DNA from: Escherichia phage KKP 3715
Sequence record: OR067834.1
DNA length: 64,000 nt
Reading direction: 5' to 3' (one strand)
Below, piece after piece: positions 1 to 58,992 of this stretch. Position 1 is the first letter of the stretch, and each line of letters begins with the position of its first letter. Made by a program: the position numbers and the translations under genes. The notes below the pieces were generated by a model. That model was not told the DNA's origin. It worked only from the letters and a program-made list of their open reading frames with translations, and made no database searches.

Positions 1-1185
1 TCTGGTAATGGTCAGTTGATGACCCTCAGTAATTGTGTTCGAGCAAAAGTTGAAGGTACTCATTTCACTAAATCACCGAATGATGGTATTCGTTTAGTTG
101 GCTGTTCCTACTCTAGTGTTCTGGATGTACATGCTTACAATAACTTGAGTGTTGGTGTACAAGACAGGGATGGGTTATCTAACTTAATTCATGGTTGCTA
201 CTGCAATTACAATGGCGATACAGGTACAGTTAGTAATACTGGTGGGCGTGGTATTCTTCTTTGGAGAACCAAGAAGTCACTGGTATCTGATTGTTACACC
301 TATAACAATACGGAGTACGGTTTCCGTAACTATTCTCAGACTGGTGATGCTAGTGCATCATATCAAAACGTTGTGACTAATCTCCGTTCCGGGGACAACC
401 TTAAAATTGATGTCTATTCTTATAATGAAGAAGGCAGCATGGCTGAGATTGTATTTAGTAACTGTACTGTACGCAGAACAACGCAGCCTCAGGGTACTTG
501 TGTATCTATTCAGGGTAAAAATACTAATTACATTGGGGGCACTATTAAGAAAGAGGGTGACCGTCTTACTGTACCAGTGTTTTCTATTTATCAGACGACT
601 CGTGCTTCTGTACGAAATGTCACTATTGATAACGCTGGTCAACTTATTAGTTTGTCTTCTGATGTGGCTACTCAGTTGTCAGGGTTAGTAGCTGAATGCT
701 CTACCATTAGTAATGGGGGCAATGCTACTTACACAAACTGTTACTTTACCCATGGTGGTTCTGGTACTACAGATATTGGTATTGATGCAGGTACTGTGTC
801 TACCCCAGTCATTCAAGCTTGCACCTTTGATGGGTTTTATCGTTGTGTATCGTGGACAGCACAGAAAATGGTATTGGTTAATAACGTTAGTATTAATACT
901 ACTGATGTATCCCTTCGTATGTTTGGGGATGGTATTGCTAACTATTGGGCATCTGGTAACTGCTGGGATAAAGAAGGTAATCCGGATGTTATTAGTAATT
1001 TTACCAAACAAGGTGGACCAACTGCTAAACCAGTTATTTATGTTAACAACGCAGCACCTACTACTCTTACGTGGCCTGTAGGTGCTATTGCAATTAACAA
1101 GACACCTGTGGTTGGGCAACCTAAAGATTGGCGTTGTACTGTAGCGGGAACCCCCGGTACATGGGTTTCTGGTGGTAATCTGTAA
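1..1185 (+). CDS. tailspike / tail fibre-like protein, 5'-partial (frame open to window start)
   Basis: Frame is open from nt 1, so the gene likely starts upstream of the window. Repetitive Gly/Asn/Thr/Ser-rich segments typical of beta-helix receptor-binding proteins; sits in the late module and is followed by a second such gene. Confidence 0.4.
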   Translation, partial: SGNGQLMTLSNCVRAKVEGTHFTKSPNDGIRLVGCSYSSVLDVHAYNNLSVGVQDRDGLSNLIHGCYCNYNGDTGTVSNTGGRGILLWRTKKSLVSDCYTYNNTEYGFRNYSQTGDASASYQNVVTNLRSGDNLKIDVYSYNEEGSMAEIVFSNCTVRRTTQPQGTCVSIQGKNTNYIGGTIKKEGDRLTVPVFSIYQTTRASVRNVTIDNAGQLISLSSDVATQLSGLVAECSTISNGGNATYTNCYFTHGGSGTTDIGIDAGTVSTPVIQACTFDGFYRCVSWTAQKMVLVNNVSINTTDVSLRMFGDGIANYWASGNCWDKEGNPDVISNFTKQGGPTAKPVIYVNNAAPTTLTWPVGAIAINKTPVVGQPKDWRCTVAGTPGTWVSGGNL

Positions 1186-1235
1186 TACTTAGCCCCTCTT
1201 TGGAGGGGCATTACTTAGAATAAAACGAGGTATAT

Positions 1236-3224
1236 ATGAAAGACATGTTTGCTCAAGGTGGTTCTGGTTCTGCTGGAATCAAGACCAATAAACAAGCAAT
1301 TGCTCGTGCTTGTAACGTTAAAGTAAGTGAAGTCATTTATAGCAATGACACCATCACTACTCTTGATGGTAAAAAGGTTATCTATGATAAACCTAATCAG
1401 TATATCTGGGGCTTACCTTCTGGTATCCCATCTGGGGCTACCGTTGTAACTGTGACTGGGGCTACTCTGGTTTATAACCCTGGCAATATCTCAGTTACAT
1501 TGGAATTAGTTCCTAATTCTTCTGTTAACCAATTAAAACAAGATTTACTATCTTCAAACGGTTTTTCTTTAGTTGGTGGAATTAGGGGTATTGTTAAAAC
1601 CTCTGAAGTAGCTAACTTAGAAGATGCTATTACGTTAGCATTAGAAAATGATGCTGATGTTCTAGTAGATAATATTCAGAACATTACAGTACCAATCCGT
1701 AAATCCTTGAATGGAAAAGATATTAAAATAATTTCTACACCTAGTGGTTGGATTAACTTTACCCCAACGGATGCTAACACTTACTATCAGGTTCTGACTT
1801 TTGACGGAACTGGGGTGGAAAGCGTAACCACTAAAGTGAAGATAGATGGTGGTAAAGTTCGCGGCGTAGGTCGGGCTGTTGTAGGGATTACGGTAAATAA
1901 CGTTTACGCACATTATGAAAGCTCAGAGATGAGGAACATCAGCGCATGTGTAAACACAGTTACCGCCCAGATTCACCTGTGTTATGGGGCTAAATATTAT
2001 AACGTATTTCAACAACTTGCTTCTCAAGACTGGAGTGCTGGAGTGTATGGCTATGGTACTGTACCAATTGATTGTGAAACTGTATTAGTAGAAGCCAATA
2101 CATTTGGTTTGTCCGGTCAACCATTAGACCGTCATGCAGTTTATTGTTCTAGTCAAGCTGATGGAACAGGTGTAGTTCGTAATGCATTTGTCTGTAATAA
2201 CACAGCAGTAATGCGTGACTACACCACGGAAACAGCAGAGACAACAAGTGAACGCTGCTTTAAATTCATTGGTACAAACCGGGTACATCTTCACCATAAT
2301 ACATTACGTGGGGGATATGGGTTCTGTCTGATAACACTTCATAAATTCCAAACCATGGAAAACATCCGCATCGATAACAATAGAGCAAGAACTTACGCAA
2401 GCGGAATTATTATCGCAGGACAGAACGAAGCCTCGGCAGAACCTGATGCAACATGGTACGTTGATGAATTACAGATGGCTAATAACCATTTCCGTATGAG
2501 AGCTACGGTAGCTGGAACAAGTAATGGGGCTGAGTGGCGCAACACGTATCGTGTTAGTGACGTTGGCAGTTCGTATGTAAACGAGGCATTTGCAACGGTG
2601 AATGCGTTAACTGTTTACTACCCAAAAACAGACCGCATACGAACTGAGAGTTTCCGTTCCGAATCTTGCTACTATCAAGGGTTCCAAAATATCACCCGAG
2701 AAATGGCCCCCACTTACACCTATATAGATATTACATGCCGTAATGCTGTTAACACTCAGAATCCCCTGAATGCATCCGGCGCTACTGTCCAGAATGTAAA
2801 AGTACGGAGTCTTGATAACACGGCGATGTGGAAGGATTACACGGCTACCGCAATTGTAGGGTTCTCATACTACGACCCTAGCTTTCTTAAATTCATAAGA
2901 TGTGCAGGAGCTGGATTGTGGGAAGATGAAGATGGGTATCCAGTAGTTGGATTATCTACTGGCAGGCCCACTAGACTTCGTGAAGGTCTTAAATTCTACC
3001 AAACAGATTTAGCCACAATGATTACTTGGACCGGTTCTAACTGGGTTCTCCAGTCAGCAGGATATACTGGGATAATTAAATCAGGAACAACTCCACAAAT
3101 AAACTCTGTGAACAAGGCATTACTTGGTTATGGACATGTTATATATAACACCGACACCAAAAAACCGGCTTTCTTTGATCAATTAGCTCAGTCATGGAAG
3201 TACGCAGACGGTAGCGCAATGTAA
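1236..3224 (+). CDS. tailspike / tail fibre protein (beta-helix-like, possible depolymerase)
   Basis: 662 aa; ATG with GAGGT RBS about 6 nt upstream; beta-helix-like repeat composition; followed by an intrinsic terminator. Confidence 0.45.
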   Translation: MKDMFAQGGSGSAGIKTNKQAIARACNVKVSEVIYSNDTITTLDGKKVIYDKPNQYIWGLPSGIPSGATVVTVTGATLVYNPGNISVTLELVPNSSVNQLKQDLLSSNGFSLVGGIRGIVKTSEVANLEDAITLALENDADVLVDNIQNITVPIRKSLNGKDIKIISTPSGWINFTPTDANTYYQVLTFDGTGVESVTTKVKIDGGKVRGVGRAVVGITVNNVYAHYESSEMRNISACVNTVTAQIHLCYGAKYYNVFQQLASQDWSAGVYGYGTVPIDCETVLVEANTFGLSGQPLDRHAVYCSSQADGTGVVRNAFVCNNTAVMRDYTTETAETTSERCFKFIGTNRVHLHHNTLRGGYGFCLITLHKFQTMENIRIDNNRARTYASGIIIAGQNEASAEPDATWYVDELQMANNHFRMRATVAGTSNGAEWRNTYRVSDVGSSYVNEAFATVNALTVYYPKTDRIRTESFRSESCYYQGFQNITREMAPTYTYIDITCRNAVNTQNPLNASGATVQNVKVRSLDNTAMWKDYTATAIVGFSYYDPSFLKFIRCAGAGLWEDEDGYPVVGLSTGRPTRLREGLKFYQTDLATMITWTGSNWVLQSAGYTGIIKSGTTPQINSVNKALLGYGHVIYNTDTKKPAFFDQLAQSWKYADGSAM

Positions 3225-3230
3225 AACTAA

Positions 3231-3255
3231 CCCCGCTCAGGCGGGGTTTTTTGTT
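3231..3255 (+). terminator. Rho-independent terminator after tail fibre genes
   Basis: Hairpin ccccgc-tcag-gcgggg followed by tttttt. Confidence 0.6.
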
Positions 3256-3324
3256 GTGCCACAAACAAATCATTGGGTAGACTGTTTCAGTCAATTACGA
3301 CTTAACCAACCTGAGAAAGTCCCT

Positions 3325-3657
3325 ATGGGAAATGAACCAGATAACGTAACTCTAGCCAGACTCGAAGAGAGACTGAGAAACATTTTCGAAAACCAAACCC
3401 GTGAATCGAGGGAAAGGGAGAAAATGGAAGAGTCTATTAAAAAGCTAAGTGAGTCTATGGGCGACCTTAGTACCCGACTTAAACGGGTAGAAGAGAGCAT
3501 CACTAAGTCTGAACCTACCATCGAAGAGTTCATCACTATTAAACATAAGGTTGCTGGTGCTGGAATTTTTGGTAAGTGGGTGTGGGCTGGAGCAGGTGCA
3601 ATCATTGGTGTATTGGCTGCTGCAAGACGGGAGATATTCGCATGGTTTGCAGGCTAA
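3325..3657 (+). CDS. small membrane protein (holin/antiholin-like), N-terminal coiled coil and C-terminal glycine-zipper TMD
   Basis: ATG at 3325 with gagaaag RBS; the track start at 3256 is a GTG inside the terminator and was moved. C-terminus AGAGIFGKWVWAGAGAIIGVLAAA is hydrophobic; sits immediately upstream of the endolysin. Confidence 0.35.
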   Translation: MGNEPDNVTLARLEERLRNIFENQTRESREREKMEESIKKLSESMGDLSTRLKRVEESITKSEPTIEEFITIKHKVAGAGIFGKWVWAGAGAIIGVLAAARREIFAWFAG

Positions 3658-3902
3658 AAAGAAAGATAGGACTAGTACCTAACTGGAAGAAGTCCTGGAA
3701 GTGGGCATCTGTTCAGATTAGCACGTTTGGATTAATTCTGTTTTCCGTCGTAGATATTATCCAACCAATGCTAACAGGGCTACCTCGCCACATCCTGGAA
3801 GATATTCCACATGGTTCCAGCATTACAATCGCACTATTTGCCTTAAACATTGTAGGCAGACTAATACGATTCCATCCAAAGGAAGATTCTCATGAAAGCT
3901 AA
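3642..3902 (+). CDS. putative holin / pinholin (two predicted TMDs)
   Basis: 86 aa from the in-frame ATG at 3642; two hydrophobic helices (ISTFGLILFSVVDIIQPML, ITIALFALNIVGRLI); overlaps both neighbours as lysis genes often do. Confidence 0.4.
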   Translation: MVCRLKRKIGLVPNWKKSWKWASVQISTFGLILFSVVDIIQPMLTGLPRHILEDIPHGSSITIALFALNIVGRLIRFHPKEDSHES

Positions 3903-4527
3903 ACAGAAACTTGCTGCAAAAGGTGGTGCAGTGGGAGGAGTTGTCGCTGCTATTCTGGGGGCAGTGTTCTATATGGAAGGGGGGTACGTAAACAATCCTC
4001 GTGACCCAGGTGGGGAAACTAATCATGGTATTACTCAATCAGTAGCTAAGTCTCACAAAGAAGTTCTGGCTACTGAGTATGGTTGGGATGGTTCCATGAA
4101 GGGTTTATCTAAAGAGATGGCTGCTGAGATATACATAGATGACTACGTACTTAAGCCTAACTTCGTAGCTTTCGCTGATATATCTCCTGCTGTAACACAC
4201 AAACTGGTTGATGCTGGTGTTAACACAGGTGTAACCAGACCAGCTAAGTGGTTGCAGCAATCTCTTAATGAAATGTCCCGTGATGGCAAAGACTACCCTA
4301 AAATACAAGTTGATGGTAAAGTCGGTGCAGGTACTGTTAATGCATATAAAGCATTACAGAAAAAACGAGGCAAAGTTGCAGCATGTCAGGTAATGATTAA
4401 GTTACTTGATGCTAAACAACTGAACCACTACACCTCATTGAACATGCCAGACTTTACGTATGGTTGGGTAGCTAACCGAATTGGTAATGTACCACTGGAG
4501 GCATGTAATGAAGATGCTAATCTCTAA
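3892..4527 (+). CDS. signal-anchor-release (SAR) endolysin, GH108-type N-acetylmuramidase with peptidoglycan-binding C-terminus
   Basis: Motif EGGYVNNPRDPGGETNHGIT matches the GH108 signature EGGY..DPGG.T..GIT; N-terminal hydrophobic Gly/Ala-rich stretch KGGAVGGVVAAILGAVF consistent with a SAR domain. Confidence 0.75.
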   Translation: MKAKQKLAAKGGAVGGVVAAILGAVFYMEGGYVNNPRDPGGETNHGITQSVAKSHKEVLATEYGWDGSMKGLSKEMAAEIYIDDYVLKPNFVAFADISPAVTHKLVDAGVNTGVTRPAKWLQQSLNEMSRDGKDYPKIQVDGKVGAGTVNAYKALQKKRGKVAACQVMIKLLDAKQLNHYTSLNMPDFTYGWVANRIGNVPLEACNEDANL

Positions 4528-5008
4528 AGGTTGGCCTTATCTTCTGGTGGTGGTCCTCGGGGCCACCATTTACTTTTGGGGCAATTCCAATGGGCAGTCT
4601 ACTGTTCAAAAGAGGTGGGATGCCCAAAAGGTTGAAGACCTGAAGGCAACACAAAAACTACAGGACAAATACAATGCTCTCCAAAGAAACCATAGTTATG
4701 AAGTCGGGTTACTTACTTCCCGGTTGCAGACGGCTGAGAGTAATTACGCAAGCGAGCTTGCTCGCGTTAGCAGTGATTACGACAGCCGGATGCAACAGTC
4801 TGAAAGACGAGCATCGGTATATAAACGTCAAGCCGAAACCGGAACCCTTGAGTGCAGAAGTCTTGCAAGCCATGCAGCCAGACTCGACAACAGTCTTGAA
4901 GAAGGCAGACGTTTGGTTGAAGAACTCCGGGCAACTGTTAGACTCCGTGACAACCAACTAATTGAGTTGGGTAAGCAAATTCAGGCTGACCGTAAACTTT
5001 TTGAATAG
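4508..5008 (+). CDS. i-spanin (Rz-like)
   Basis: N-terminal TMD ([16 protein letters not shown]) then a long charged helical periplasmic domain; overlaps the endolysin stop; contains an embedded +1-frame lipoprotein ORF. Confidence 0.6.
4698..4961 (+). CDS. o-spanin (Rz1-like lipoprotein) embedded in the i-spanin gene
   Basis: MKSGYLLPG...LAVITTAGC: signal peptide ending in a lipobox-like TAGC, then a short Pro-containing periplasmic tail; lies entirely inside 4508-5008 in another frame. Confidence 0.55.
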   Translation: MKSGYLLPGCRRLRVITQASLLALAVITTAGCNSLKDEHRYINVKPKPEPLSAEVLQAMQPDSTTVLKKADVWLKNSGQLLDSVTTN

Positions 5009-5016
5009 GATTAACT

Positions 5017-7287
5017 ATGGAACACCAAGACACTTTTAAGCCTTTACCAGACCCGGCTCAATCAGAGAAGTTAACGGACTGGAAGAAGGAACCAAGTATC
5101 CAATTACTGAAGGGTGATTTGGAATCAGCTAAACCGGCTCACGATGCGATTATGGCACAGATTCGTGAGTGGAATGACCTGATGGAAGTCAAGGGTAAAG
5201 CTAAACCCCCAAAGGTTAAGGGACGCTCACAAGTCCAACCCAGACTGGTTCGCCGTCAGGCAGAGTGGCGATATGCTCCATTGTCTGAGCCGTTCCTCTC
5301 ATCTAATAAACTCTTTAAAGTAACTCCGGTTACCTTTGAAGATGAGTTAGCTGCACGTCAGAATGAATTAGTTCTTAACTACCAATTCCGTACCCAGCTT
5401 AATAAAGTAAAACTGGTAGATGATTACGTACACAGTGTCGTAGATGACGGTACTGGTATTGCTCGTATTGGTTGGGAACGTAAGACTGTTAAGATTAAAA
5501 CAGAAACTCCTGTATTTCAGTTGTATCCAATTGAGAACCAGGAACAGGCCGATGTTCTCCAGCAGGCTTTACAGCTTCAGGCAGAGAATCCTCGTGAGTA
5601 TGATGAAACAATGCCGGAAGATATTAAGGAAGCTGTTAACTACTTCAATGAAACTGGGGAAGCTACCTATGCAATCCAGACTGGGGTTACTGAAGTAGAA
5701 GTAGAGAAGGCACTGGTTAACAGACCTACTGTTGAAATGCTTAACCCTAATAACGTAGTTATTGACCCAAGCTGTAATGGTGATTTGGATAAGGCTCTTT
5801 ATGCAGTTATCTCGTTCGAGACATGCAAAGCAGACCTCATGAAGAACAAAGACCGTTACCACAATTTAGATAAGATTGACTGGGAAAGCTCCAGCCCTAT
5901 GACTGACCCAGACCATGAGAGTAAAACCCCTAGTGACTTCCAGTTTAAGGATGCACTTCGTAAGAAAGTTGTTGCTTATGAATACTGGGGATTTTACGAC
6001 ATTAATGATGACGGTTCTCTGGAACCCATTGTTGCTACCTGGATTGGTTCTACCCTTATTCGTATGGAGAAGAACCCATTCCCGGATGGTAAATTACCTT
6101 TAGTAGTTGTTCCTTACATGCCACGTAAACGAGAACTATTCGGTGAAGCTGATGCTGAACTGTTAGGAGATAACCAAGCAATTCTTGGTGCAACTATGCG
6201 TGGGATGATTGACCTGTTAGGTCGAAGTGCAAACGGTCAACGTGGCTATCCTAAAGGGATGTTGGATACACTGAACCGTCGTCGGTATGACGATGGGCAA
6301 GACTATGAATATAACCCAATGCAGGGCAATCCTAGTCAGGCCATTATGGAACATAAGTTCCCTGAGTTACCACAGTCGGCAATAATAATGACCCAGATGC
6401 AAAACCAGGAAGCAGAATCCCTAACTGGTGTTAAAGCATTCTCTGGTGGTGTAACTGGTTCAGCTTATGGAGATGTGGCTGCTGGTATTCGTGGTGCACT
6501 TGATGCAGCATCCAAACGTGAGATGGCAATCCTTCGTCGATTAGCTAAGGGTATGGCAGACATTGGTACTAAGATTTGTGCAATGAATGCCGTGTTCTTA
6601 TCAGAGAAGGAAGTAGTACGTATTACTAACGAGCAGTATGTAGAGATTAACCGTGAAGACCTTAAAGGTAACTTCGATATTGAGGTTGATATTAATACTG
6701 CCGAAATTGATAACCAGAAGTCTCAGGATTTGAGTTTCATGGTTCAAACATTGGGTAATACGGTTGACCAGACTATTACGTTATCTCTTGTAGCTAAGAT
6801 TGCAGAACTTAAACGTATGCCTGACCTGGCTCATGAGTTACGTACTTGGCAACCACAGCCAGACCCTATGGAAGAGCAGCTTAAGCAATTGGCGATTCAG
6901 AAAGCACAGCTTGAGAATGAAGAGTTACAAAGTAAGATTGCACTCAATATGGCTAAGGCTAAAGAGGCTGCTTCTAGTGGTGACCTTAAAGACCTGGATT
7001 ATCTGGAACAGGAATCTGGTACTAAACATGCCCGTGATATGGAAAAACAAAAAGCACAATCTCAAGGAAACCAGAACCTTCAGATAACTAAGGCATTGAC
7101 AACACCTATTAAAGAAGGGGAAACTACCCCCAACATATCTGCAGCTGTTGGATATAATACTTTGACTAACGGGAACTCTATACCAGAACGTGATTTAGCT
7201 GCTCAACAAGACCCGGCTTATTCACTCAGTTCCCAATACTATGACCCTAGCCAAGACCCAGCATCGGCTCTTGGCATGAACCTGTAA
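5017..7287 (+). CDS. portal protein
   Basis: 756 aa; AGGA RBS; size and position (three genes upstream of the capsid gene) match the N4 portal as recalled; acidic C-terminal tail. Confidence 0.55.
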
Positions 7288-7300
7288 GGCAGACCTTCAC

Positions 7301-7645
7301 ATGAGTAAAGAATCAACAATCGCTGGACTGGAACATCGACTGGAAGCTGCTAAAGGTGCAGTTGCACATGCAGAAGATGTACGTAAACTTCTGGAGAATC
7401 CACTGTTCCGTAAAGTAATCCTTCGCCAGTTCTGTACGGAAGATTGTGCACGTTACGTGCAAGAGTCTGGTGACCCACTGCTTGAAGCTAATAACCGTGC
7501 AGATGCATTGAACATGGCTCAAGCTGCTGGTCACTTACGTCGTTGGCTTGACCTCGCTATTCGTATGGGCGAAAACGAAGCTGACGTTATTCTACAGGTA
7601 GAAGAAGAACTCGACGCAGTTCGTGCTGAACCTGAAGACGAATAA
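7301..7645 (+). CDS. hypothetical protein (head module)
   Basis: 114 aa ORF packed between portal and putative scaffold. Confidence 0.45.
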   Translation: MSKESTIAGLEHRLEAAKGAVAHAEDVRKLLENPLFRKVILRQFCTEDCARYVQESGDPLLEANNRADALNMAQAAGHLRRWLDLAIRMGENEADVILQVEEELDAVRAEPEDE

Positions 7646-7664
7646 TTAACCGGAGATATTTCCT

Positions 7665-8885
7665 ATGACTACGGAAGCTGCAACCACAGCTTCCGACATT
7701 CTCGCAATGTCGGATGATGAGATTCTGAATATGGAAGCCCCAGCAATTATCGCTGAGGAAGATACTTCCACTCAGAACAACCCAGAAACCAACGGCGTAC
7801 AGACTCCTGATGAAGAAGTTGACACCCCTGCTGTTGAAGACCTACCAACCGAAGAAACCTCCCCTGAAGCCAAACCAGATGAAGAAGATTCAGCAAATCC
7901 TTTAACTTCTGATAAAGTTGATGATAAAGTTGTTGACACAGAAGTTGATAGTAACGGCGAGCCGATTACTAAAGCTGAACCTTCTACTACTGAACCAGGC
8001 CAGGAACAGAAAGAAGAAGGCAAACAGTCTGAAGGTCTGCCTGCTGACTTCAACTATAAGGAAAGTTACGAAAAGTTGATGGCTCCTTTTAAAGCTAACG
8101 GCAAAGTGATTACTCCCCGTTCACCGGAGGAGGCCATTAGCCTGATGCAGATGGGTGCTAACTATACTCGTAAGATGCAAGAACTAAAGCCTTACCGTAA
8201 GGTAATGCTGATGTTACAGAACAACGGTTTAATGGATGAGGATAAACTTTCTTTCCTGATTGACCTGGATAAAAAGAATCCTGAAGCCATTAAGAAGTTG
8301 CTCAAAGACTCTGGTACAGATCCCCTGGACTTTAATCCAGATGAGGAAATTAACTACCAGGGTGGCAATCACCGTGTTACCGACACCGAAGCAGATTTTG
8401 CAACCGAAATTGACGACTTAAAGTCTACTCAAGAAGGACAAGCTACATTAGGTGTTATCGGCTCGACATGGGATGCTGCCAGTAAAGATGCTCTTTACCA
8501 GAATCGTGGCCTACTCCAGACTATTCATGAACAACGTGAGAATGGTATTTATGACACCATTGCAAACGAAGTGAACCGTCTTCAGATGTTAGGCCAGATT
8601 CCGGTAGGTACTCCGTTTATTCAGGCTTATAACCACGTCGGTAACCTCCTTGCACAGCAAGGGGCATTTAACCGAGTGACTAAGCCTGAACCGGTACAAG
8701 CAGTTAAACCAGTAGTTCAGCCGGTAGTGCGTGTAGCACAACCTAAGCAGACTCTGGCTAACAGTGAGCAAGCTAAAGCAGCTTCCCTTAATCGGGCTGC
8801 TACACGTAAAGCTACACCTATTGTAAACCCACTCGCTATGAGTGATGAAGATTTCGCTAAACTCCCAGTACCGGGTAGTCTTTAA
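7665..8885 (+). CDS. putative scaffolding / head assembly protein
   Basis: 406 aa with a highly acidic, low-complexity N-terminal third (D/E/T/P-rich) and helical remainder; directly upstream of the capsid gene. Confidence 0.35.
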   Translation: MTTEAATTASDILAMSDDEILNMEAPAIIAEEDTSTQNNPETNGVQTPDEEVDTPAVEDLPTEETSPEAKPDEEDSANPLTSDKVDDKVVDTEVDSNGEPITKAEPSTTEPGQEQKEEGKQSEGLPADFNYKESYEKLMAPFKANGKVITPRSPEEAISLMQMGANYTRKMQELKPYRKVMLMLQNNGLMDEDKLSFLIDLDKKNPEAIKKLLKDSGTDPLDFNPDEEINYQGGNHRVTDTEADFATEIDDLKSTQEGQATLGVIGSTWDAASKDALYQNRGLLQTIHEQRENGIYDTIANEVNRLQMLGQIPVGTPFIQAYNHVGNLLAQQGAFNRVTKPEPVQAVKPVVQPVVRVAQPKQTLANSEQAKAASLNRAATRKATPIVNPLAMSDEDFAKLPVPGSL

Positions 8886-8901
8886 ACAGGAATAAGATGA
8901 T

Positions 8902-10104
8902 ATGTTAAACTATAACGCCCCAATTGACGGCCAGAAATCTAGCATTGATGGTGCTGGTTCCGACCAGATGAATACCTATTACTGGCTGAAGAAAGCTATT
9001 ATTCAGTCCCGTAAAGACCAGTACTTCATGCCACTGGCTAACACCATTAACATGCCGAAGAACTACGGTAAAACTGTTAAGGTGTATGAGTACGTTCCAC
9101 TGCTTGATGATAAGAATATTAACGATCAGGGTATTGATGCTAATGGTGCTACCATCGTTAATGGTAACCTGTATGGTTCTTCCCGAGACGTTGGTAACAT
9201 CACTTCTAAACTGCCTCTGCTGACAGAGAACGGTGGTCGTGTTAACCGTGTAGGCTTTACTCGTCTGTCTCGTGAAGGTTCCATCCATAAGTTCGGTTTC
9301 TTCTACGAATTTACTCAAGAGTCTCTGGACTTTGATTCTGATGACCAACTGAAAGAACACCTGTCTCGTGAACTGATGAACGGTGCTGTACAGTTGACTG
9401 AAGCTGTTCTCCAGAAAGACCTGTTGGCTGCTGCCGGTACTGTACTGTATGCAGGTGCTGCTACTTCTGATGCTACCATCACTGGTGAAGGTTCTACCCC
9501 GTCCGTAGTTTCTTATAAGAACCTGATGCGTCTTGACCAGATTCTTACTGAGAACCGTACTCCGACCCAGACTACTATCATCACTGGTTCTAAACTCACT
9601 GACACCAAAGTACTTGGTGGTACTCGTGTAATGTACGTTGGTTCTGAACTGGTTCCTGAGCTGAAAGCGATGAAAGACCTGTTCGGTAACAAAGCATTCA
9701 TCGAGGTTCAGCACTATGCTGATGCTGGTACTCTGATGAATGGTGAGATTGGTTGTATCGACAAGTTCCGTATTATCCAGGTTCCTGAGATGCTGCATTG
9801 GGCAGGTGCTGGTGCTCAGGTTACTACTAACCCAGGTTATCGTTCTTCTATGGTTAGTGGTCAGGAACACTACGACGTATTCCCGATGCTGGTAGTTGGT
9901 GATGACTCCTTCTCTACCATTGGCTTCCAGACTGATGGTAAGTCTGTTAAGTTCTCCATCATGACTAAGATGCCTGGTCGAGAAACTGCTGACCGTAATG
10001 ACCCGTATGGTGAGACTGGTTTCAGTTCCATCAAGTGGTACTACGGTATCCTGGTTAAACGTCCAGAACGTCTGGCTCTGATTAAGACTGTTGCTCCTCT
10101 GTAA
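8902..10104 (+). CDS. major capsid protein
   Basis: 400 aa (N4 major coat protein is about 400 aa as recalled); strong AGGA RBS; highly biased codon usage producing a long spurious antisense ORF; followed by hairpins/terminator. Confidence 0.65.
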
Positions 10105-10171
10105 TAGTCCTAAATAAAACAAGGGGGACTTATGTCCCCCTCTTAATAAAACTAGTTGAACCACAGGAAAT

Positions 10172-10813
10172 ATGAACATGAGCATTAACGATAAACCGAC
10201 CACTGACGTAGAACTGGACGTACAGGGCAACGAAGATACCGTTAACGATATTGCAATGCCTAGCGAACTTGAAGTTCTTAAGCAACGTGCAACGTTGATG
10301 AATATTAAGTTCTCTAACAACATCTCCGTTGAGAAGCTCCGTGAGAAGATTGAAGCTGCACAAGCAAAAGATGAACCAGAAGTAAAAGAATCAGCAGTTA
10401 ATCCTTTGGGTGAAAAACAGGAAGCTGGTGTTAAGAAAATGACCCTGGGTCAGAAGATTCGTGCAGAACAGACTCGACTGATTCGTGTACGTATCCAGAA
10501 CCTAGACCCTAAGAAGAAAGACCTGCCGGGTGAGATTATCACCGTAGCTAACGAATATATGGGTACTGTACGTAAGTTTGTTCCATTCGGTGAAGTCACC
10601 GACAATGGTTATCATATTCCGTACTGTATCTATGAGTTCCTTAAAGAGCGTAAGTTCATCAACATTACGACTCGTAAAGGTAAGAATGGCTTACCGGATA
10701 TCCGTGCAACAGAGGCACGTGAGTTCTCCATTGAAGTATTGCCTCCGCTGACTGAAGCAGAATTGACTCAACTGGCTCAAGCACAGATTGCTGCTGGTAG
10801 CCTGAACGATTAA
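10172..10813 (+). CDS. hypothetical virion-module protein
   Basis: 213 aa; AGGAAA RBS; followed by an intrinsic terminator. Confidence 0.45.
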   Translation: MNMSINDKPTTDVELDVQGNEDTVNDIAMPSELEVLKQRATLMNIKFSNNISVEKLREKIEAAQAKDEPEVKESAVNPLGEKQEAGVKKMTLGQKIRAEQTRLIRVRIQNLDPKKKDLPGEIITVANEYMGTVRKFVPFGEVTDNGYHIPYCIYEFLKERKFINITTRKGKNGLPDIRATEAREFSIEVLPPLTEAELTQLAQAQIAAGSLND

Positions 10814-10833
10814 CGTATAAGCTACAGTTCAAC

Positions 10834-10872
10834 ACGGCTCACTGGGGTAACTCCGTGGGCCGTTTCTTTTTG
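10834..10872 (+). terminator. Rho-independent terminator
   Basis: acggctcac...gtgggccgt stem (one mismatch) followed by ttctttttg. Confidence 0.5.
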
Positions 10873-10883
10873 AACCAAGAGGA

Positions 10884-11726
10884 ATGATTATGTCTTGTTC
10901 TGCTGAGGTAGAAGCTAACCGACTCCTAGAAGAGTTAACTAAGGGGGATGACTTTACCCTCCCTGACATTGATATGTCTGGTCCTGAATGGGATATCCCT
11001 GGTGGTGATGAATCCCCAATCTTTGGTGCCATTAGCAAAGTAACTAACGAATCGCTTACTACACGTGAAGTAGGTGGTAGTGGTACGTTTGATGCATTAA
11101 TGGAATCTGCACACAATCACCTTAGAGCTGAGTATAAAGCTAACCGTATTACCGGTGGTGAATACACCAAAGCCTATATTGCCATGATGGAATCATGCAT
11201 GAGTAATGCTGTTCAGTTCTTACTTGGTCGTGACCAAGCATACTGGGCTGCTGCTATGGCACAGATTCAGGCAGTTACTGCACGAGTGCAACTGGCAACG
11301 TCTAAGGCACAGTTTGTACTGGCTAAGATTCAGGCACTGTCTGCTAAGAGTGAATATGCTCTTACTAAGATGAAGATTGCTACTGAGTCTGAAACATACT
11401 GTGCTGCATTGTTTAATGTGAATAAAATTCTTCCTGCACAAGAACGTTTGATACAGGAACAATATGAAGTACAACGTGCACAGACCCAAGAAACTCGTTC
11501 TGATGCATTACCTATTCTTGGTTCTATTGGTAAACAGAAAGAGTTGTATTCCCAACAGATTACTTCTTATCAGCGAGATGCAGAAGTTAAAGCGGCTAAG
11601 CTGTTTACTGATGCATGGATTACACAGAAGACTATTGATGAAGGCTTGAACCCACCTAATGGTTTCACTAACGCAAGTATTGATACCATTCTGACCAAGC
11701 TGAAGTCTAACAACGGGCTGAACTAA
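10884..11726 (+). CDS. virion structural protein (hypothetical)
   Basis: 280 aa; AAGAGGAA RBS; in the block of virion genes upstream of the giant polymerase gene. Confidence 0.45.
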
Positions 11727-11727
11727 T

Positions 11728-14370
11728 ATGGGCTTATTCAGTGGGAAGACCAAAGTATACGTAGCATCCTCTGTCTATAACATGGCAGGGGATATACATA
11801 AGCGCCCAAACTATATGAAGACTGTAGTCATCGGTAAGATTGTTGCTGATACAGGATTCACTATGGCAGACACTATCTCTGATAGTTATCTGAATGGACC
11901 GGGTATTCGTATGCGACTGTTCTCCAGCTGGAGTAAGAACCACTATGATTCAGAAGTTGGTATGGCAGGAGCTTCATTAGGTGTGCTGGCTAAGATTGAC
12001 CCTACTATTATAGAGGGTCAAATTACCCCACCTGCTGGGGAGACTGTCTATGTTCAGGCAGCAGAGATTGGCTTTGCTGACTTTGAGCAATGGTGTGACC
12101 AGTATCTTTATGAGAATGCCCCAAGTCGAATAATGGAGCGATTCGACGTAGACATTGATGAAGATACTAATGAAATTACTATGACCTCCCTTGATGGTGG
12201 TTCTACCATTACATTCACACCTACTAACTTTGAACCAGGTGCTTTGTATCTCTATGCTGATTACACTTTCTATAAGTCCCCAGCTACCAATCCACCGGTA
12301 GTAGGGCCGACTACTGTCTATGATAATGAAGGCGACTTACCATCTACCCTGCTATGGACTACCATCTCAAGTGATACGACAGCTAATACAACCAATCTTA
12401 CTAAGACTATACAGACTCATTCTGTTTACTCTGATGGTAGACCGGATGAAGACAGTACTGTTACTGAACCAAGTGTGGATAACTGGAATTCTTACGTTAA
12501 GGTTTACCGTAGAGGATTTACTGAGAAACCTGATGATGTAACTGTGGTTGTATCTGACAGGGTAATGACTCATACAAAGTTTGGTGAGGTTCAATCTAGC
12601 ACTACTGTAACTACCAATGTTGTTGATTTAGGTGGTGGTGTTACTCGCACAGATACAATCACTACAACTACAGAGACACTGGTTCGTAAGTACTCATCCC
12701 AGACTACCCGTACTGATACTGAGATGACTGCTGTTGGTACACCTAAGATGCTTATCTATAAGCAGAACTCAGGCAACGTTGCACTTGATTCACTGTTTGA
12801 GACTGAAGCTACCGATAACCGATTCTACCCATTCATTCCAATCAGGAATGATAAGCAATGGGTAGAGAATGACCCAATCTACCCCCACTGTAAGAAGGCA
12901 CTCTATAAAGCTACCGGTGGTAAACTCAATAAAGTAGTGACTGAGCTTAAGAAGAATGACGACATAGATGATATCCAATACATCTATGGCACATTCGGTG
13001 TATCTCTTAATACTCCAGAGGATACTGCTAAGGAATACATCTACCGTTTCTTTCAGATGGCTACTGAAGCATTCCCACCTGACCCAACCTACCCTACACT
13101 GGAAGCAGTGATTGCAGGTTATCAGGCAGCAAATGATGCAGTTGATGCATACGTAGAATGGTGGAACAGGCAGGAAGGTCAGGTAGTTGGAACACCTCCT
13201 CCACTACCGGAATACCCTGTCATACCTAAGCGAGAGTTTAGGGTACATAGTAATAAGCAGTACAAGTATGACATGACTATTGGTTGGAACTATGTGTCTG
13301 AAACTACTCATTCTGGTGAAGCATGGTCTGGTGCTAAACAAGGACAACTTCGAGCCAGATATGCAGGGGATATAACTCTTACACGTAAGAACATACGTAC
13401 AGGTGCTAACAAAAAGCTGGAAGTTACCACTACGTTTTATTCTATGCAGGAGTATGAATTGCTTTGGCAGGATGGTAATGACACCTACCGTAAACTTAGG
13501 GTACTGGGTCTGAACCACAACAACAGGGTATATAAAAATAAGTCAGTGAGCATTGATGTTGCCGAAGCAATGGGTGATGCAGAAGAGAGTGGATTCATTA
13601 TTCCACTACACACTAACATCTACCGTTCAATGTCACTGACTCGTAGTACTCAACTGTCTACTGCTTGTTCCTACTTAGTGATGAACTCATATAAGAAGGT
13701 TAAGCAGAAGTGGTATACGACATCTGCCTTTAAGATTGTGGTTGTTGTAGTTGCTGTGGTTGTATCCGTATTCACTATGGGTGCTGGTGGTGCAGGTATT
13801 CTTGGGGCATACGGTGCAGTTGGTGCATCACTTGGTTTTGTTGGATTAGCTGCTGTAATAGTAGGTGCTGTAGCAAACGCTATTGCTGCAATGATTCTGG
13901 TATCTATTATCACTAAAGTATCCACTTCTCTGTTTGGTGATAAGCTAGGCTTTATCATTGCTGCTGTTGCTTCAATGGTAGCTATGAACGTTGGCACTGC
14001 TATGTCTACCGGTACATCCTTATCTACCTTAGCCAGTGAAATGATGAATGCCCAAAACATCATGCAGCTTACCAGTTCAGTAGGTAACGGTATTAGCCAG
14101 TATATTAATGCATCCACGGCTGCTACTATTCAGAAAGCAGAGAATGTAATGCAGCAGTACAATACTGATATGATGGCAATCAATAAGCAGTATGAAGAAA
14201 TGTTTGGTACTGCTGGACAGGGTGTAATTGACCCTATGCAATTTGTGTCAATTGAGTCGATGGATTCTTTCCTCTCACGTACTCTTATGACTGGTTCGGA
14301 TATAGCTGACATGTCTTTAAATATGATTGGAAGCTACTCTGATATGACTCTTAATACAGACCTTGTTTAA
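11728..14370 (+). CDS. large virion protein with C-terminal glycine-rich hydrophobic segments (possible ejection / membrane-insertion protein)
   Basis: 880 aa; the C-terminal ~130 aa contains VVVVVAVVVSVFTMGAGGAGILGAYGAVGASLGFVGLAAVIVGAVANAIAAMILVSI and further hydrophobic stretches. Confidence 0.45.
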   Translation: MGLFSGKTKVYVASSVYNMAGDIHKRPNYMKTVVIGKIVADTGFTMADTISDSYLNGPGIRMRLFSSWSKNHYDSEVGMAGASLGVLAKIDPTIIEGQITPPAGETVYVQAAEIGFADFEQWCDQYLYENAPSRIMERFDVDIDEDTNEITMTSLDGGSTITFTPTNFEPGALYLYADYTFYKSPATNPPVVGPTTVYDNEGDLPSTLLWTTISSDTTANTTNLTKTIQTHSVYSDGRPDEDSTVTEPSVDNWNSYVKVYRRGFTEKPDDVTVVVSDRVMTHTKFGEVQSSTTVTTNVVDLGGGVTRTDTITTTTETLVRKYSSQTTRTDTEMTAVGTPKMLIYKQNSGNVALDSLFETEATDNRFYPFIPIRNDKQWVENDPIYPHCKKALYKATGGKLNKVVTELKKNDDIDDIQYIYGTFGVSLNTPEDTAKEYIYRFFQMATEAFPPDPTYPTLEAVIAGYQAANDAVDAYVEWWNRQEGQVVGTPPPLPEYPVIPKREFRVHSNKQYKYDMTIGWNYVSETTHSGEAWSGAKQGQLRARYAGDITLTRKNIRTGANKKLEVTTTFYSMQEYELLWQDGNDTYRKLRVLGLNHNNRVYKNKSVSIDVAEAMGDAEESGFIIPLHTNIYRSMSLTRSTQLSTACSYLVMNSYKKVKQKWYTTSAFKIVVVVVAVVVSVFTMGAGGAGILGAYGAVGASLGFVGLAAVIVGAVANAIAAMILVSIITKVSTSLFGDKLGFIIAAVASMVAMNVGTAMSTGTSLSTLASEMMNAQNIMQLTSSVGNGISQYINASTAATIQKAENVMQQYNTDMMAINKQYEEMFGTAGQGVIDPMQFVSIESMDSFLSRTLMTGSDIADMSLNMIGSYSDMTLNTDLV

Positions 14371-16837: not shown

Positions 16838-16898
16838 AACTGGCTTACTGTAGAGTAAGTTACCTATATACGATATAAGTTTGAACAGGAAACATGCT

Positions 16899-19800
16899 AT
16901 GTCAACATTTGACCGTCTGGCAGGTTTCGCAGACAGCATCACTAATGCTAAGCAAGTCGATGTCTCTACTGCAACCTCTCAGAAGCAAGCTGCACAAGGG
17001 CAAAGCCCTTTCCAATTAACCCCAGAGAATGCTTACAATCTCCAGACTGGACGAGTAGGTAATCTTGGAATCGGTGCATTCGAACCAGATTCACTTCAGG
17101 CAGATTTCACTCAAGCCTCCCCATTAGAAATCATTAATAAATACGGTAATGAGCAAGGTTTACAGATTCTTAATAGCCGAGCTAATGCTGCTGATGTTGT
17201 ACGTCAGGACTTATCTAAACAGCGTACTAACGCAGAAGCATTTGGCGATACTCTTTCTGGTGTTGGTCTTGGTGTTGCTAATACCCTTGGGGGCATTGCT
17301 GCTCTTGGCACAGGTCTGGTCAATGATAATGCCGGGGCAACCATTGCTTCCGGGATGGATTGGTTGAATGAAGGCGTACACAATCTCCAGTCTGATGCAC
17401 TGAATGCTACCCGTAAAGTTGTTCAGAATCAGAACCAGATTTCTGCTCAAAAGAACCAGAAACTCTATGAAGAAGACATCAAAAATGGGGAGAGCGATTT
17501 GGTTGCCTCCTTGTCTCGCATTGGTCGTGACGCTTTCGATTCTGTTGCTAATACACTTGATAATGGTATGGCTGCTTCCGACGGACTGAGTGAAGGGGTT
17601 GGTTCCCTCTTTACTGGTGGTCCACTTATTCGTGGTGTATCTGCACTTGGTAAAGTAATGGTAGGTGGTGATAAAGCTGTTAAGGGTATTACCTTAGCTG
17701 CTGGGTTAGGTTCACGCCCTGCACAGGTTGCATTGTCTGCTGGTCGTGTTGCTGCACCTGCTATTGCAATCGGTGGTATGGAAGCTGGTGGTGCATACCA
17801 ACAGACTGCTTCTGAAATCATGAAGATGTCCCATCAAGAATTGGCAAGCAAGTCTCCTGTTTACCAACAACATATTGCTGATGGATTATCCCCTGATGAA
17901 GCACGTCGTCAGACTGCATCTGAAACAGGTATCATTGCTGCTGGCTTAACTGCTCCAGTTGCTGCTGCTACCGGCCCATTGGTATCTCGCTTTGAACTTA
18001 ATCCACTTAAGGTAGGTTCACTTGCAGGTGCTGGTTCTAATATGCTGCGTGAGACTGTAGAGGAAGGTATTCAGTCAGGCTTTGGTCAATATGCCCAGAA
18101 CCGTGCAATCAAGGAAAATGTTGATGCATCCCGTGACGTTCTCAAAGGAGTCGGTGAGCAAGCAGGTCTGGGTGCACTTTATGGCTTCGGTAGTGCTGGT
18201 GTTGCTCAAGCTCCTGGTGCAACTGTTAAAGCTGCCGGTGCTGCTGCTGGACCTGCTCTTCGTACTACTCTGGCTGGTGCTTCTCTGGTTGGTAAAACAT
18301 TAGCAAAAGCTGCATCTCCTCTTACTAATATCCTGGTTCAACGTGGTGAAGAAGTTGCTAAGCGTAATGAACAAGCATCCCCTGTAGCTGATGCTACGGT
18401 TAATGCTGCTGCACAGGAAGCTGCTGCTCAGGCAGAGCAAGCACAGGCAACTGTACAGGAAGCAGTAGATGCAATGGATATCTCTCCAGAAGAGAAAGCT
18501 GCTGCTACCCAATATGCTGCTGACTTAACTCAGGCAATGAAGTTTGATCCAGTAGAATTGGAACAAGCTAATCCAACAATCCGTGAAGCTGTTTCTGGTT
18601 CCACTAACCGTGTAGAAGCTATTCAGAAGATGGCTGACCTGGTTAATACTGCCGAAGACCCTAACGTTCAAATGGAAGCAGCAATCCAGATGTATGACAA
18701 TATCATGTCCATGGATAGCTTCATTAACCGTGACCCGGGTGCTCTGGCTAATCTGGAACAGGGTTCCCCTGCTGCTGCAATTGTAGACCAGTTCTCTGGC
18801 CTGATGGCTAACGTACAGAATACCCCTAAAGTACTTCGTGCATTCCGTGCTATTCATTCCATGATTCAGGAACAGGCTGAAGCAGGTAAGCTGAAAGCTA
18901 CTGAAGAAGCTAACCAAGCCCAGGCAAATAACATTGCTATGGCTGCTGATGTATCTCCAGAAGTGCTGGATGCAGATTCAGTGAACATGGTTCTGAAACA
19001 TGCAAGTGAAGGTAAGATTACATTAGGGAATCGTCAACGTGCTGCCCTGCAATCTGCTGCTGCCTTGTTACAGGGTGCACGTGAGTTCGACGCTAAAGCA
19101 GAAGAACTAGGCTTACGTCCTCAAGACATTGTTAGTAAACAGATTAAAACCGATGAGTCTCGTTCTAATGAAGGACAGTACTCTGCGTTGCAACATGCGA
19201 AACGCATTCGTTCTGCGTATAACTCTGGTAACTTCGATTTGGCCTCCGCTTATCTGAGCGACTTTATGAAGTTCGCCCAGCACATGCAGAATAAGGTCGG
19301 AGCGTTGAATGAGCATTTGATTTCGGGGAATGCGGATAAGAATAAGTCTGTTCATTATCAGGCTCTCTCGCCTTCCCGTGAATGGGTACGTAGTCGTACT
19401 GGCCTCGGTGTCAATCCTTACGATACCAAGTCTGTTAAGTTTGCCCAGCAAGTAGGACTGGAGGCCAAAACCGTAGCTGATATTGCTAATGCACTTGCTA
19501 CGGCTTACCCGGAGCTTAATGTTTCTCATGTGAAAGTTACCTCGTTGGATTCACGTCTGAACAAGCCAGCTGCCCAGGTAGTTAAAGAGTTCCGTCAAGG
19601 TGGTCTTGATGCCACTCAGTCTCAACAGACTAATGAACCAGTGAATCAGGTTGATGAATCTCCTGCACCAGTGCAAGAGGACACTACTACTGTACAGCCT
19701 AAAGCTAAACCAGTGGTAGAAAATAAGACTGCTCCTACTAAGGAGACTAGTCCAAAAACAGAAGAAGTCTCTACTACTAAGTCTGAAACAGTAGAAGCTA

Positions 19801-22800
19801 CCCCCACTAATGAGGATACCATCCAGGAAGTAGCCAAAACCAAAACAGAAATGGAAACAGTGTTCCCTGTCTATAACAATGAAAAGACACCGAACCAGTT
19901 CCTGAAAGCATTTACCTTACCAGAGGAACCTAAGTCTCGTACCGTTGGTTCTGAATCTCCTTTGGCTGATATTAAGCAAGCACTGTCTTCTGTTGCTCGC
20001 TTTGAGGCATTTACTCAAAAAGAAAATAACGTTCTCACAGGTGATGTGATTAAGCGTTATCAGGACTTAATGGACTTTGGGGAAACTCTGAAGACTACTT
20101 TGTCTGAACGATTGGCTAAGTTCCTTGCTAATAAGAACGTTGGTAAACGTTTTGCAGAAGGTACTGAAGCTAACCGTTGGGTAGGTGGCAAACTACTTAA
20201 TATCGTTGAACGAGATGGTGACACCTTTAAGTTTAATGACCAGTTGTTAGAGACTGCTGTACTTGCTGGTCTGCAATGGCGACTGACTGCTACACAGAAT
20301 GCTGCCATTAAAGACATGAAAGATGTGGCTGCTATTACTGGTGTAGAAGCATCTTTGTTACCAGAAGGTATTCTGGCTGAGTTTGAGAATGCCCAGACTC
20401 TGGTAGAAGCTACTAACTCACTGGCTCAGAAGATTGAATCCTACTGGGGTTTAAACCGTAATCCTAATGCACCACTTGGGTATACAAAAGGCATCCCAAT
20501 GGCAATGGCTACAGAGATTCTGTCTTCCCTCATTGAGATGGGTGAAGTTAAAGAATCTATGCTGGATGTGTCCGAGATTGACCCAGACTCCAATAAGACT
20601 GTCGGTCTGTATACTATTGAGAAGCTGGATGACAACGATGCCATTAACAAATTCCCTACTGCTATTGAGGAAGCTGTCCTCTTAGAACCAGAAGAGAAAA
20701 TGTATTTTGATGATGATATTCCTTCTGTGGCTCAAACTCAGTTGCGTAACCCTGCTGTTAAGAATACCCCAGAACAGAAAGCTGCACTTAAAGCTGAACA
20801 GGCTACTGAGTTCCGTGTACATATGCCGATGGTTAACTTCTATGAAGCATTAGGCCGTGACAACATTCTGGAACTGATGGGTGCTGGTACTCTTAATCCT
20901 GATTTGCTGAATAAAAACACTGCCAAATCTTTGGAAGGTAAAAACCTGTCCGTATCCATGGCATATGATTCTCTGTTCGGTGTAATTAATCAGATACGAG
21001 AACAAGAGAATGGTCTGGATACTCCTATTCACTACGGTTACAACATGACTCGTGTAGGTCGTATGCAGATGCTTGGTAAGAACAACCCACAATCCAGTAA
21101 ACTGGTTCGTGAAGCAATTCTGCCGACCTTCTCTACTATCGACTTGAGTAATGAAAACAGCCAAGCATTCTCTGACTTCCAGCTAGGACTGGCTCAGGCA
21201 TTAGGCATCAAGGTACATAAAATGTCACGTGAAGCTATGTCTGAAAATCTGACCAAAGCTCTGGAAGGCAATCTGAAGCCTGCTGTTGATATGATGGTTG
21301 AGTTTGATAAGGCTGGTTACTTACCTACTGATGCAGTAGATATTCTGAAGACTTCTCTGGGTGATAACAAATCCTTCGTGGCTCTCATGGCTCTGATGGA
21401 ATATGCCCGTTACCTGAACAGTGATGACCGTGCTAATTTTACTACTCCCTTGTACGTTGAAGCTGATGGTGTAACCAACGGCCCAATCAACGCAATGGTA
21501 TTAATGACTGGTGGTAAGTTCACGCCCGACTGGATTAAGAACACTGCCAAAGGTGGTTTGTTCTTTGGTCGTGCTGGTAAAACGATGAACGAACACTGTT
21601 CTATCGACGATAATGTTGACTTGTATGAAGCATCTACCAATGGTCTGCAACAAGCACTGAATGAGTTACGTACTACTTACCGTAACAACGTTCCGGTTAT
21701 GAGCCAGATGAATCATCTCCAGAAGTTAATGGACTTGTTCATTAAAGACTTTAATCTGAACGAAGACGGTACTCTGGACCTGAAACGTGGTATCGCTAAA
21801 AACCCACTGACCATTACCATCTATGGTTCTGGTGCACGTGGTATTGCTGGCAAGATGGTTAGTGCAATTACTGACACCATCTACGAACGCTTCAGTGACG
21901 TTCTGCAAGCACGGGCTGCTGACCCTAGCATTTCCCCAGCTATGGCAATGTTTGGTAAGGAGGCTGCGTCTGAGGCTGATGCTCAGGCTATGCTGGATAC
22001 TTTCCTTACTTCTATGGAAGCACTGACTGGCAATGTTCCAGTTATGCGTAAAGGTGAATTGTCTATTCAGCAAGTAGATGGTGCTCTGACTGGTAAGTTA
22101 GACCCTCAGAAGTTTACCGTATCCGGTAATGCTCTGAAGAACTTACAAGAGAACATGCTCCACCTGTTCGTTGAACCAATGCGTACCGGTATCCGGAATA
22201 CTGTTGGTGAAGGTCTGATGCACTCTACTGAGAATTTGCAGAAGGCTACCCAGATTCAATCTCTGGTATTGCAGGATATGTTCCAGCAAGCAGTACAGGC
22301 TAAGCTGGCAGAAAAAGAAAAAGACCCAACCTGGAAGAAGGGTGATTTCTTAACGCAGAAAGAACTGAATGAAATCCAGGAATCATTATCTCCACTGGCT
22401 CCAATGATTGAGACTGGCTCACAGACTTTCTACATTGCTGGCAGTGAGAATACTGATGTTGCTAACCAAGTACTGGCTACTAACTTAGATGATCGTATGC
22501 GTGTGCCAATGAGCATCTATGCTCCTTCACAGGCAGGTGTTGCAGGTATTCCATTTATGACCATCGGTACTGGTGATGGCATGATGATGCAGACCCTTTC
22601 TACTATGAAGGGTGCTCCGAAGAATACCCTGAAAATCTTTGATGGTATGAACATTGGTATCAGTGACATTACTGATGCAAGTCGTAAAGCTAACGAGGCT
22701 GTATACACTTCCTGGCAGGGGAACCCTATCAAGAATGTTTATGACTCCTACGCTAAGTTCATGAAGAATGTAGACTTCAGCAAACTGTCTGATGAAACCA

Positions 22801-28319: not shown

Positions 28320-28551
28320 AGTGACTTTAACGCAGTCAACGAGGCAGGCCGTCAAACTACTATCACTACAGGGTTAAGCGACCATGGGTTGATAGCCCGA
28401 TAGTAGTAAGACGTAGGTTTGGATTTCTAAGTGTTACCTTCACTAGCGAAATTCCCGTCGAGGGGAATAACAATACATTAGCAGCCACTGGACTGTCTTA
28501 CCAGTGTTGTCTTTAGAGTGCTGTGCAATCAGGACTATGTTACTGCTGAAT

Positions 28552-28628: not shown

Positions 28629-28637
28629 ATAATATGA

Positions 28638-29648: not shown

Positions 29649-29650
29649 AT

Positions 29651-29716: not shown

Positions 29717-29779
29717 ATAGTTGCCAGGGATTCCACCTGGCTCCATCTGTTTTTATAGTCACTCAGATATCGTCTGGAC

Positions 29780-50817: not shown

Positions 50818-50847
50818 ACTGTTTCCTTGATTAATCTGGATAGCCTT

Positions 50848-58991: not shown

Positions 58992-58992
58992 G

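Follow-up and report, generated by a model that had tools for sequence, protein, structure and literature searches.

The edge-cut tailspike region of Escherichia phage KKP 3715 as the probable right-hand part of an exchangeable two-tailspike cassette

In phage G7C, the tailspikes gp66 and gp63.1 form a stable two-branched complex, in which the N-terminus of gp66 sits on the tail and the binding of gp63.1 requires the XD3 domain of gp66 (PMC8825819). Phage St11Ph5 retains a conserved architecture with completely different receptor-recognition units (PMC5764931). In G7C and F22, read in the orientation used here, the terminal repeat is followed by small leftward open reading frames (ORFs; gp72-70), gp69, gp68 (the terminase large subunit, TerL), gp67, gp66, gp63.1 and gp63, and then by the holin, endolysin, spanin and portal genes, with sizes of 1038-1063 amino acids (aa) for gp66 and 751-851 aa for gp63.1. 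Here, we describe the equivalent region in a 64,000-nucleotide (nt) stretch of Escherichia phage KKP 3715 (OR067834.1), hereafter the window, with positions counted from its first nucleotide. We favour the reading, at a probability of about 0.9, that window 1-3224 is the right-hand part of a swappable two-tailspike host-recognition cassette of a lytic G7C-like phage. The reading is built on sequence, synteny, domain homology, fold and flanking genes, from which we infer docking, enzymatic activity, substrate and the exact genome termini.

The first tailspike gene (ORF1; window 1-1185, plus strand) is the 3′ part of a gp66-type anchor or branching tailspike gene, as indicated by its reading frame, Pfam, AlphaFold2 (AF2) and Foldseek. 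Frame 1 is free of stops from nt 1 to the TAA at 1183-1185 (395 codons), so that the gene is open to the window edge, as the preliminary description had noted. The visible 394 aa correspond to about residues 515-908 of a protein of ~908 aa, comprising a right-handed beta-helix domain and a C-terminal cap; they match Pfam Beta_helix (E 3e-10), and the AF2 model, with a predicted local distance difference test (pLDDT) score of 92.5, is an all-beta solenoid of the right-handed beta-helix type. The nearest solved folds found by Foldseek belong to phage depolymerases and tailspikes, namely the Klebsiella K1 lyase 7w1c, K64-1 S2-4, CBA120 TSP2, LKA1 gp49 and HK620.

The missing part of this gene could be found in public read-archive assemblies, which can resolve truncation at a window edge without new sequencing. 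An exact-sequence look-up of ORF2, the second tailspike gene, returned one Logan contig, SRR24296945_0 (59,307 nt), the fetched part of which we call L007. Window 1-13225 is 99.99% and window 62128-64000 is 99.9% identical to L007, whose positions 1872-8765 form a bridge of 6,894 nt that joins window nt 64000 to nt 1; the ORF1 region is identical to L007 8766-9950. The bridge encodes six small leftward ORFs (gp70-72-type), gp69, TerL, gp67 and the N-terminal 514 aa (5′ 1.5 kb) of the gp66-like protein. With its frame repaired at one position, as discussed below, this protein is 908 aa long and is 67% identical over residues 1-401 to G7C gp66 and 66% over residues 1-408 to F22 gp66. In the PDB, residues 1-416 match 9d80_D (E 5e-144), residues 138-393 the XD2/XD3 region of CBA120 TSP2 (6w4q) and residues 75-211 the N-terminal part of TSP4 (7rej), and from residue 422 onwards Pfam assigns Pect-lyase_RHGA_epim and Beta_helix. 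The near-identical Logan contig therefore encodes, just outside the window, a tail-binding N-terminal domain with gp10-like XD2 and XD3 domains after it.

ORF2 (1236-3224, plus strand) is a complete tailspike gene of 662 aa at the gp63.1 position, as judged from its translation, N-terminal homology, AF2 and Foldseek. By homology to gp63.1-type N-termini, its N-terminal docking module covers aa 1-90 (nt 1236-1505); a flexible linker (aa 92-116), disordered in the AF2 model, leads to the beta-helix body and C-terminal domain (aa 117-662, nt 1584-3221). The first 88 aa match the N-termini of G7C gp63.1, CBA120 TSP1 and TSP3, and Gp48 of Shigella phage B2 at E values of 1e-8 to 2.5e-17, including 4qnl (G7C gp63.1, E 8e-16), 4oj5 (CBA120 TSP1, E 6e-17) and 9d84_A (B2 Gp48, E 2.5e-17), and thereby represent a docking module of the gp63.1/TSP1 type. 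The AF2 model (pLDDT 86.5) consists of a small N-terminal domain, the disordered linker, a long beta-helix and a C-terminal domain, and its best fold matches in the PDB are the tailspikes CBA120 TSP3, TSP2 and TSP1, Det7, Dettilon, HK620 and P22. Both bodies are thus modelled with good confidence in the parallel beta-helix fold of solved tailspikes.

Two adjacent tailspike genes occupy the slot between gp67, which lies directly upstream in L007, and gp63/holin. The locus shares with the G7C gp66 and gp63.1 module this slot, the two-gene layout, a hairpin after each gene, a conserved N-terminal 400 aa of gp66 (67% aa identity) and an ORF2 N-terminal module that is 43% identical to gp63.1 aa 1-130. 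However, neither receptor-binding body is related to its G7C counterpart. While G7C gp63.1 is an SGNH esterase of 851 aa, ORF2 is a 662-aa beta-helix protein without an SGNH domain, and while G7C gp66 has 1063 aa, the gp66-like protein here has ~908 aa and a different beta-helix. F22, E20, PhAPEC7 and G7C are 90-97% identical in nucleotide sequence and collinear outside the cassette, but the tailspike bodies of F22, E20, PhAPEC7 and St11Ph5 give no nucleotide match, and PD205 alone shares 112 nt. A megablast search of window 1-3300 against 50,697 phage records returned this PD205 segment as its sole match (window 1193-1304, 92%, covering a hairpin and the start of ORF2); consequently, no sequenced phage among those records has this cassette.

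The boundaries of the cassette can be placed from the breaks in homology. On the left, nucleotide similarity to F22 and G7C ends at L007 8326-8357, ~410-440 nt to the left of window nt 1; on the right, F22 and E20 align again from window 3222 onwards, immediately past the ORF2 stop. These breaks define an exchanged cassette of ~3.63 kb, and 3.22 kb of it (the right-hand 89%) lies within the window. The right boundary is marked by an intrinsic-terminator-like hairpin recognised by folding (3229-3256 on the plus strand, the hairpin itself at 3229-3248), with an 8-bp stem containing six GC pairs and a following T-run. A GC-rich intergenic hairpin without a subsequent T-run, GCCCCTC-TTTG-GAGGGGC, lies between the two genes (1192-1209, plus strand; -16 kcal/mol, z -2.8). 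G7C carries short annotated repeat features at both equivalent hairpin sites, the one at the 1192-1209 site being a 16-nt repeat_region. A sigma-70 promoter scan of window 1-4000 gave one site against 9.4 in shuffled sequence and is uninformative here. The preliminary description had named the tailspike genes as the most variable part of such genomes, and this holds for KKP 3715: window 1-3221 is the largest stretch unmatched by F22, the next largest being 612 nt. The phage is an ordinary G7C-like member with a new pair of tailspike bodies, and bears out that the backbone of G7C-like phages is nearly constant and that only these bodies are exchanged. Beyond correct annotation the significance is small, and the finding amounts to bookkeeping on a window edge.

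Since every sequence-level feature of the G7C architecture is present, we infer the same assembly, including a physical complex of the gp66-like protein and ORF2 in the virion. By analogy with G7C, the gp66-type protein would sit on the tail through its N-terminal domain and would bear the T4-gp10-like XD2 and XD3 domains, while its C-terminal beta-helix (window 1-1185) may bind, and probably cleave, a surface polysaccharide. The second tailspike would dock on XD3 of the first through its conserved ~90-aa N-terminal module and add an unrelated beta-helix, which would yield a two-branched adsorption device with two glycan specificities. Depolymerase activity, as hydrolase or lyase, is the most likely function of both bodies. 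It is unlikely, yet worth weighing, that one or both beta-helix proteins are instead binding-only adhesins or O-antigen-modifying enzymes such as deacetylases. G7C gp63.1 is itself an esterase and ORF2 belongs to no Pfam family, both of which would suit such a role. Against it, the folds closest to the two bodies are those of endoglycosidase tailspikes and polysaccharide lyases, the full gp66-like protein matches Pect-lyase_RHGA_epim, and neither protein shows an SGNH/GDSL domain: ORF2 gives no Pfam match and its modelled body is a beta-helix, while SGNH domains (PF13472/PF00657) occur only in two distant homologues, P0162 and P0183, which share just the ORF2 N-terminal module.

Several points weigh against the two-tailspike cassette as we read it. 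A PDB sequence search with the ORF1 fragment gave no match at E ≤ 1, so that fold comparison was needed for this body. Identity to any biochemically characterised enzyme is 15% or less for both bodies, and for neither do the models distinguish a hydrolase from a lyase or from non-enzymatic binding. The termini and terminal-repeat length of this phage are transferred from G7C by alignment. Finally, the gene-66 position of the Logan contig holds two overlapping ORFs, of 167 aa (L007 7225-7728) and 741 aa (7725-9950), a literal reading of which would leave the anchor protein split or broken.

A genuine split or frameshift of gene 66 would leave a 167-aa anchor fragment and a 741-aa tailspike; in that case, the ORF truncated at the window edge would be either a separately translated protein or the product of a pseudogene unable to attach to the tail. 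The two overlapping ORFs and the frame change between them, at a run of six G residues (L007 7674-7680), are what such a split would look like. However, all three differences between L007 and the window (L007 12744, 412 and 1209; window 3979, 62539 and 63337) are homopolymer runs that are one base shorter in L007, and one of these breaks the endolysin gene in L007 although the endolysin is intact in the window. Adding a single G to the G6 run restores a continuous 908-aa protein that is collinear with G7C and F22 gp66 across the junction. The G6 run lies outside the window, and the window sequence cannot settle the frame of gene 66. Because every contig-window difference is a homopolymer under-call, the split is probably a sequencing or assembly error, and we regard a truly divided gene as very unlikely. 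An intact gp66-like anchor accordingly remains part of the cassette that we favour.

The relatives of the two bodies point to their origin. The closest relative of the ORF1 body found in the homologue search, which returned no identical full-length gp66-like protein, is 88% identical (P0001) and is encoded on a 158-kb metagenomic contig, L008. The P0001 locus (L008 4445-14811) contains four consecutive tailspike-like genes (1149, 618, 958 and 662 aa) beside baseplate-wedge genes and is a branched tailspike arrangement of the Ackermannviridae type. Relatives of the ORF2 body are 73-88% identical and lie on contigs of ~72 kb and ~152 kb. In the collections searched, no sequence exceeds 88% identity to either beta-helix body. 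For deposited phages, the top identities are far lower, namely 44% for ORF1 (JulesPiccard lateral tail fibre) and 52.5% for ORF2 (Phagiculus tail fibre). The ORF2 body is also ~60% identical to proteins of Enterobacter and Symbiopectobacterium. Tailspikes of P22-like Escherichia coli prophages, which combine a head-binding domain (PF09008) with a beta-helix, are 54% identical to the ORF1 body and 65% to the ORF2 body, where the relatives are annotated as 'head-binding domain' proteins, whereas their N-terminal attachment domains are completely different. The Ackermannviridae (CBA120 TSP1-4; Det7) resemble the present locus in the gp10-like XD2/XD3 branching domains of the anchor and the TSP1/TSP3-type N-terminal module of the docked protein; contigs of 152-158 kb, among them L008 with its four-tailspike cluster, also encode the nearest relatives of the two bodies (79-88%). 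Unlike these phages, KKP 3715 is a podovirus with two tailspikes rather than four, and its anchor is made for an N4-type tail rather than a myovirus baseplate.

It is well known that beta-helix bodies move among different attachment scaffolds. Given that relatives of these bodies occur behind P22-type head-binding domains and on the 152-158 kb contigs, module exchange is indicated, and both receptor-binding bodies were probably gained horizontally, the breakpoints lying downstream of the XD3-coding part of gene 66 and at the terminator that follows ORF2. Separately, ORF1 aa 246-394 (149 aa; window 736-1182) are 87-88% identical to short 'hypothetical protein' pieces in the Dickeya phages RC-2014, phiDP10.3 and phiDP23.1; the remainder of ORF1 has no match in those genomes. 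The sequence similarity suggests that these pieces may be remnants of the same tailspike body in phages of plant pathogens.

Whether the two bodies recognise O-antigens or capsules that still lack a characterised phage enzyme, their pairing then giving an unreported dual-serotype host range, is a tentative idea that we hold at somewhat less than even odds. The two new receptor-binding domains are candidate O-antigen- or capsule-specific enzymes for phage therapy or typing, their specificity not being inferable from sequence. An O-serotype taken from the homologous E. coli prophage tailspikes was considered and rejected, because 54-65% identity is too low for specificity transfer. Of the 95 phage records that match the backbone, 69 are Escherichia, 13 Klebsiella and 5 Shigella phages, and both binding bodies have their relatives in enterobacteria, for the most part in E. 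coli. These similarities place the host within the Enterobacteriaceae, with E. coli as the most probable species. The species is uncertain because near-identical backbones are also found in Shigella and Klebsiella phages, one Klebsiella phage reaching 96.5% backbone identity. The earlier statement that the host cannot be assigned was too strong given what the relatives of the backbone and of the binding bodies indicate, and applies only to species and serotype.

The bridge in L007 also bears on what had been said to lie beyond the window. The preliminary description found no terminase large subunit and placed the left part of the late module outside the window, and both statements stand. Searches of the window by tblastn with the G7C, F22 and KKP 3715 TerL proteins gave a best E value of 2.6, those with gp67, gp68 and gp69 of G7C and F22 nothing better than E 0.17, and Pfam scans of ten further late or unassigned window ORFs nothing related to packaging; all other window regions are collinear with non-terminase genes of F22. 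The TerL gene lies instead at L007 4922-6511 and encodes 529 aa, 99.6% identical to G7C gp68 and assigned to Terminase_6C by Pfam. The neighbouring gp69 and gp67 proteins are each 98.7% identical to their G7C counterparts, with SU10_adaptor in gp67 falling slightly under the Pfam cut-off, and the bridge genes follow the G7C/F22 synteny.

The proposed extension of the assembly at both ends was provided by L007, which joins the ends through phage genes only. The collapsed genome would measure 64,000 + 6,894 = 70,894 nt, which fits the 71-73 kb of its relatives once a terminal repeat is added. That the window might belong to an integrated or host-flanked element, with edges beside bacterial DNA, had been named in the preliminary description as the finding that would speak against a free lytic genome, and we found nothing else to recommend it. 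L007 continues into phage genes alone (gp1/gp2 on one side; gp70-72-type ORFs, gp69, TerL, gp67 and gp66 on the other) and contains no bacterial genes, and the related phages are lytic, with linear genomes of 71-73 kb that carry terminal repeats. We consider integration to have a negligible chance of being correct and retain a free lytic genome.

The right end of the window appears to approach the other genome terminus, as had been suspected from a G-rich segment at 63921-64000. Of its 80 nt, 35 are G (0.44), about five standard deviations above the mean for the window (0.216, standard deviation 0.045), and no 80-mer in the window is richer in G than the one that begins at 63913. The segment corresponds to nt 7-86 in the records of G7C and PhAPEC7: in blastn, the reverse complement of the right end of the window aligns from its first base at nt 7 of both, so that window nt 64000 corresponds to their nt 7. 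In the G7C record, the terminal repeat is annotated within nt 1-1160, and the left end of G7C was set experimentally (PMC5764931). The Logan contig passes straight through the point of window nt 64000 into right-end genes, as expected for a terminal repeat collapsed in assembly. Homology thus supports a right end of the window that lies inside the terminal-repeat region, with about 6 nt still separating it from the canonical left terminus of the genome.

The gp1 homologue, the first early gene at this canonical left end, lies at 63541-63864 on the minus strand; it was taken from the ORF list and is collinear with G7C gp1 (record nt 145-468), and the identical gene in L007 matches Pfam Phage_N4_Gp1. 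A perfect hairpin, ACATGC-GGA-GCATGT, with a 6-bp stem and a 3-nt loop, lies at 63907-63921 on the plus strand (the gp1 template), 43 nt upstream of the gp1 start codon; its exact sequence is unique in the window and it was seen in the fold of the minus strand. We take it to be a candidate early promoter, since it presumably resembles the hairpin promoters used by the N4 virion RNA polymerase.

The window as a whole, judged by nucleotide identity and synteny, is most of the genome of an ordinary lytic N4-like coliphage of the G7C type (Gamaleyavirus, Schitoviridae), which refines the earlier designation of an N4-like element. In a comparison with the complete F22 genome, 57.2 kb of the 64 kb could be aligned, at 90-98% nucleotide identity. 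Window 3222-9000 is 94-97% identical to F22, E20, PhAPEC7 and G7C, and window 40000-64000 is covered to 81-88% at 89-94% identity by the E. coli phages F22, E20, SP5M, PhAPEC7 and PhAPEC5 (megablast), with 42 records spanning at least 80% of this query. The high identity and collinearity with G7C-type genomes are those of a Gamaleyavirus. Among the matches listed for the 95 backbone-matching records, homology starts at window 3222-3505. Both a giant virion RNA polymerase gene and an early/late layout of the N4 type are present: the late genes run on the plus strand from nt 1 and end with a 3456-aa ORF (16881-27251) that is collinear with F22 and G7C gp50, and the replication, middle and early genes run on the minus strand up to nt 64000. 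Past the cassette, the conserved backbone starts with the gp63 homologue (3325-3657, plus strand; 96% aa identity to G7C gp63), followed by holin, endolysin, spanin and portal genes, the lysis genes and portal being assigned by PHROG and Pfam.

A few minor features were observed along this backbone. The other stretches unmatched by F22, at 58599-59210 (612 nt), 62700-63303 (604 nt) and 50829-51295 (467 nt), fall in early and middle gene regions and look like the small accessory-gene replacements typical for the genus. A tRNA-Ile (anticodon aat) lies within 28551-28710 on the minus strand and is followed 8 nt on by a second tRNA-like gene with an undetermined anticodon, in surroundings (28634-29850) that are partly non-homologous to F22. 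A 472-aa ORF with an ATG start (8905-10323, minus strand) is antisense to the entire major capsid gene (8902-10104) and is probably a chance open frame. Finally, the first 237 nt of the F22 record OP870143.1 are an inverted copy of neighbouring sequence, probably an assembly artefact of that record.

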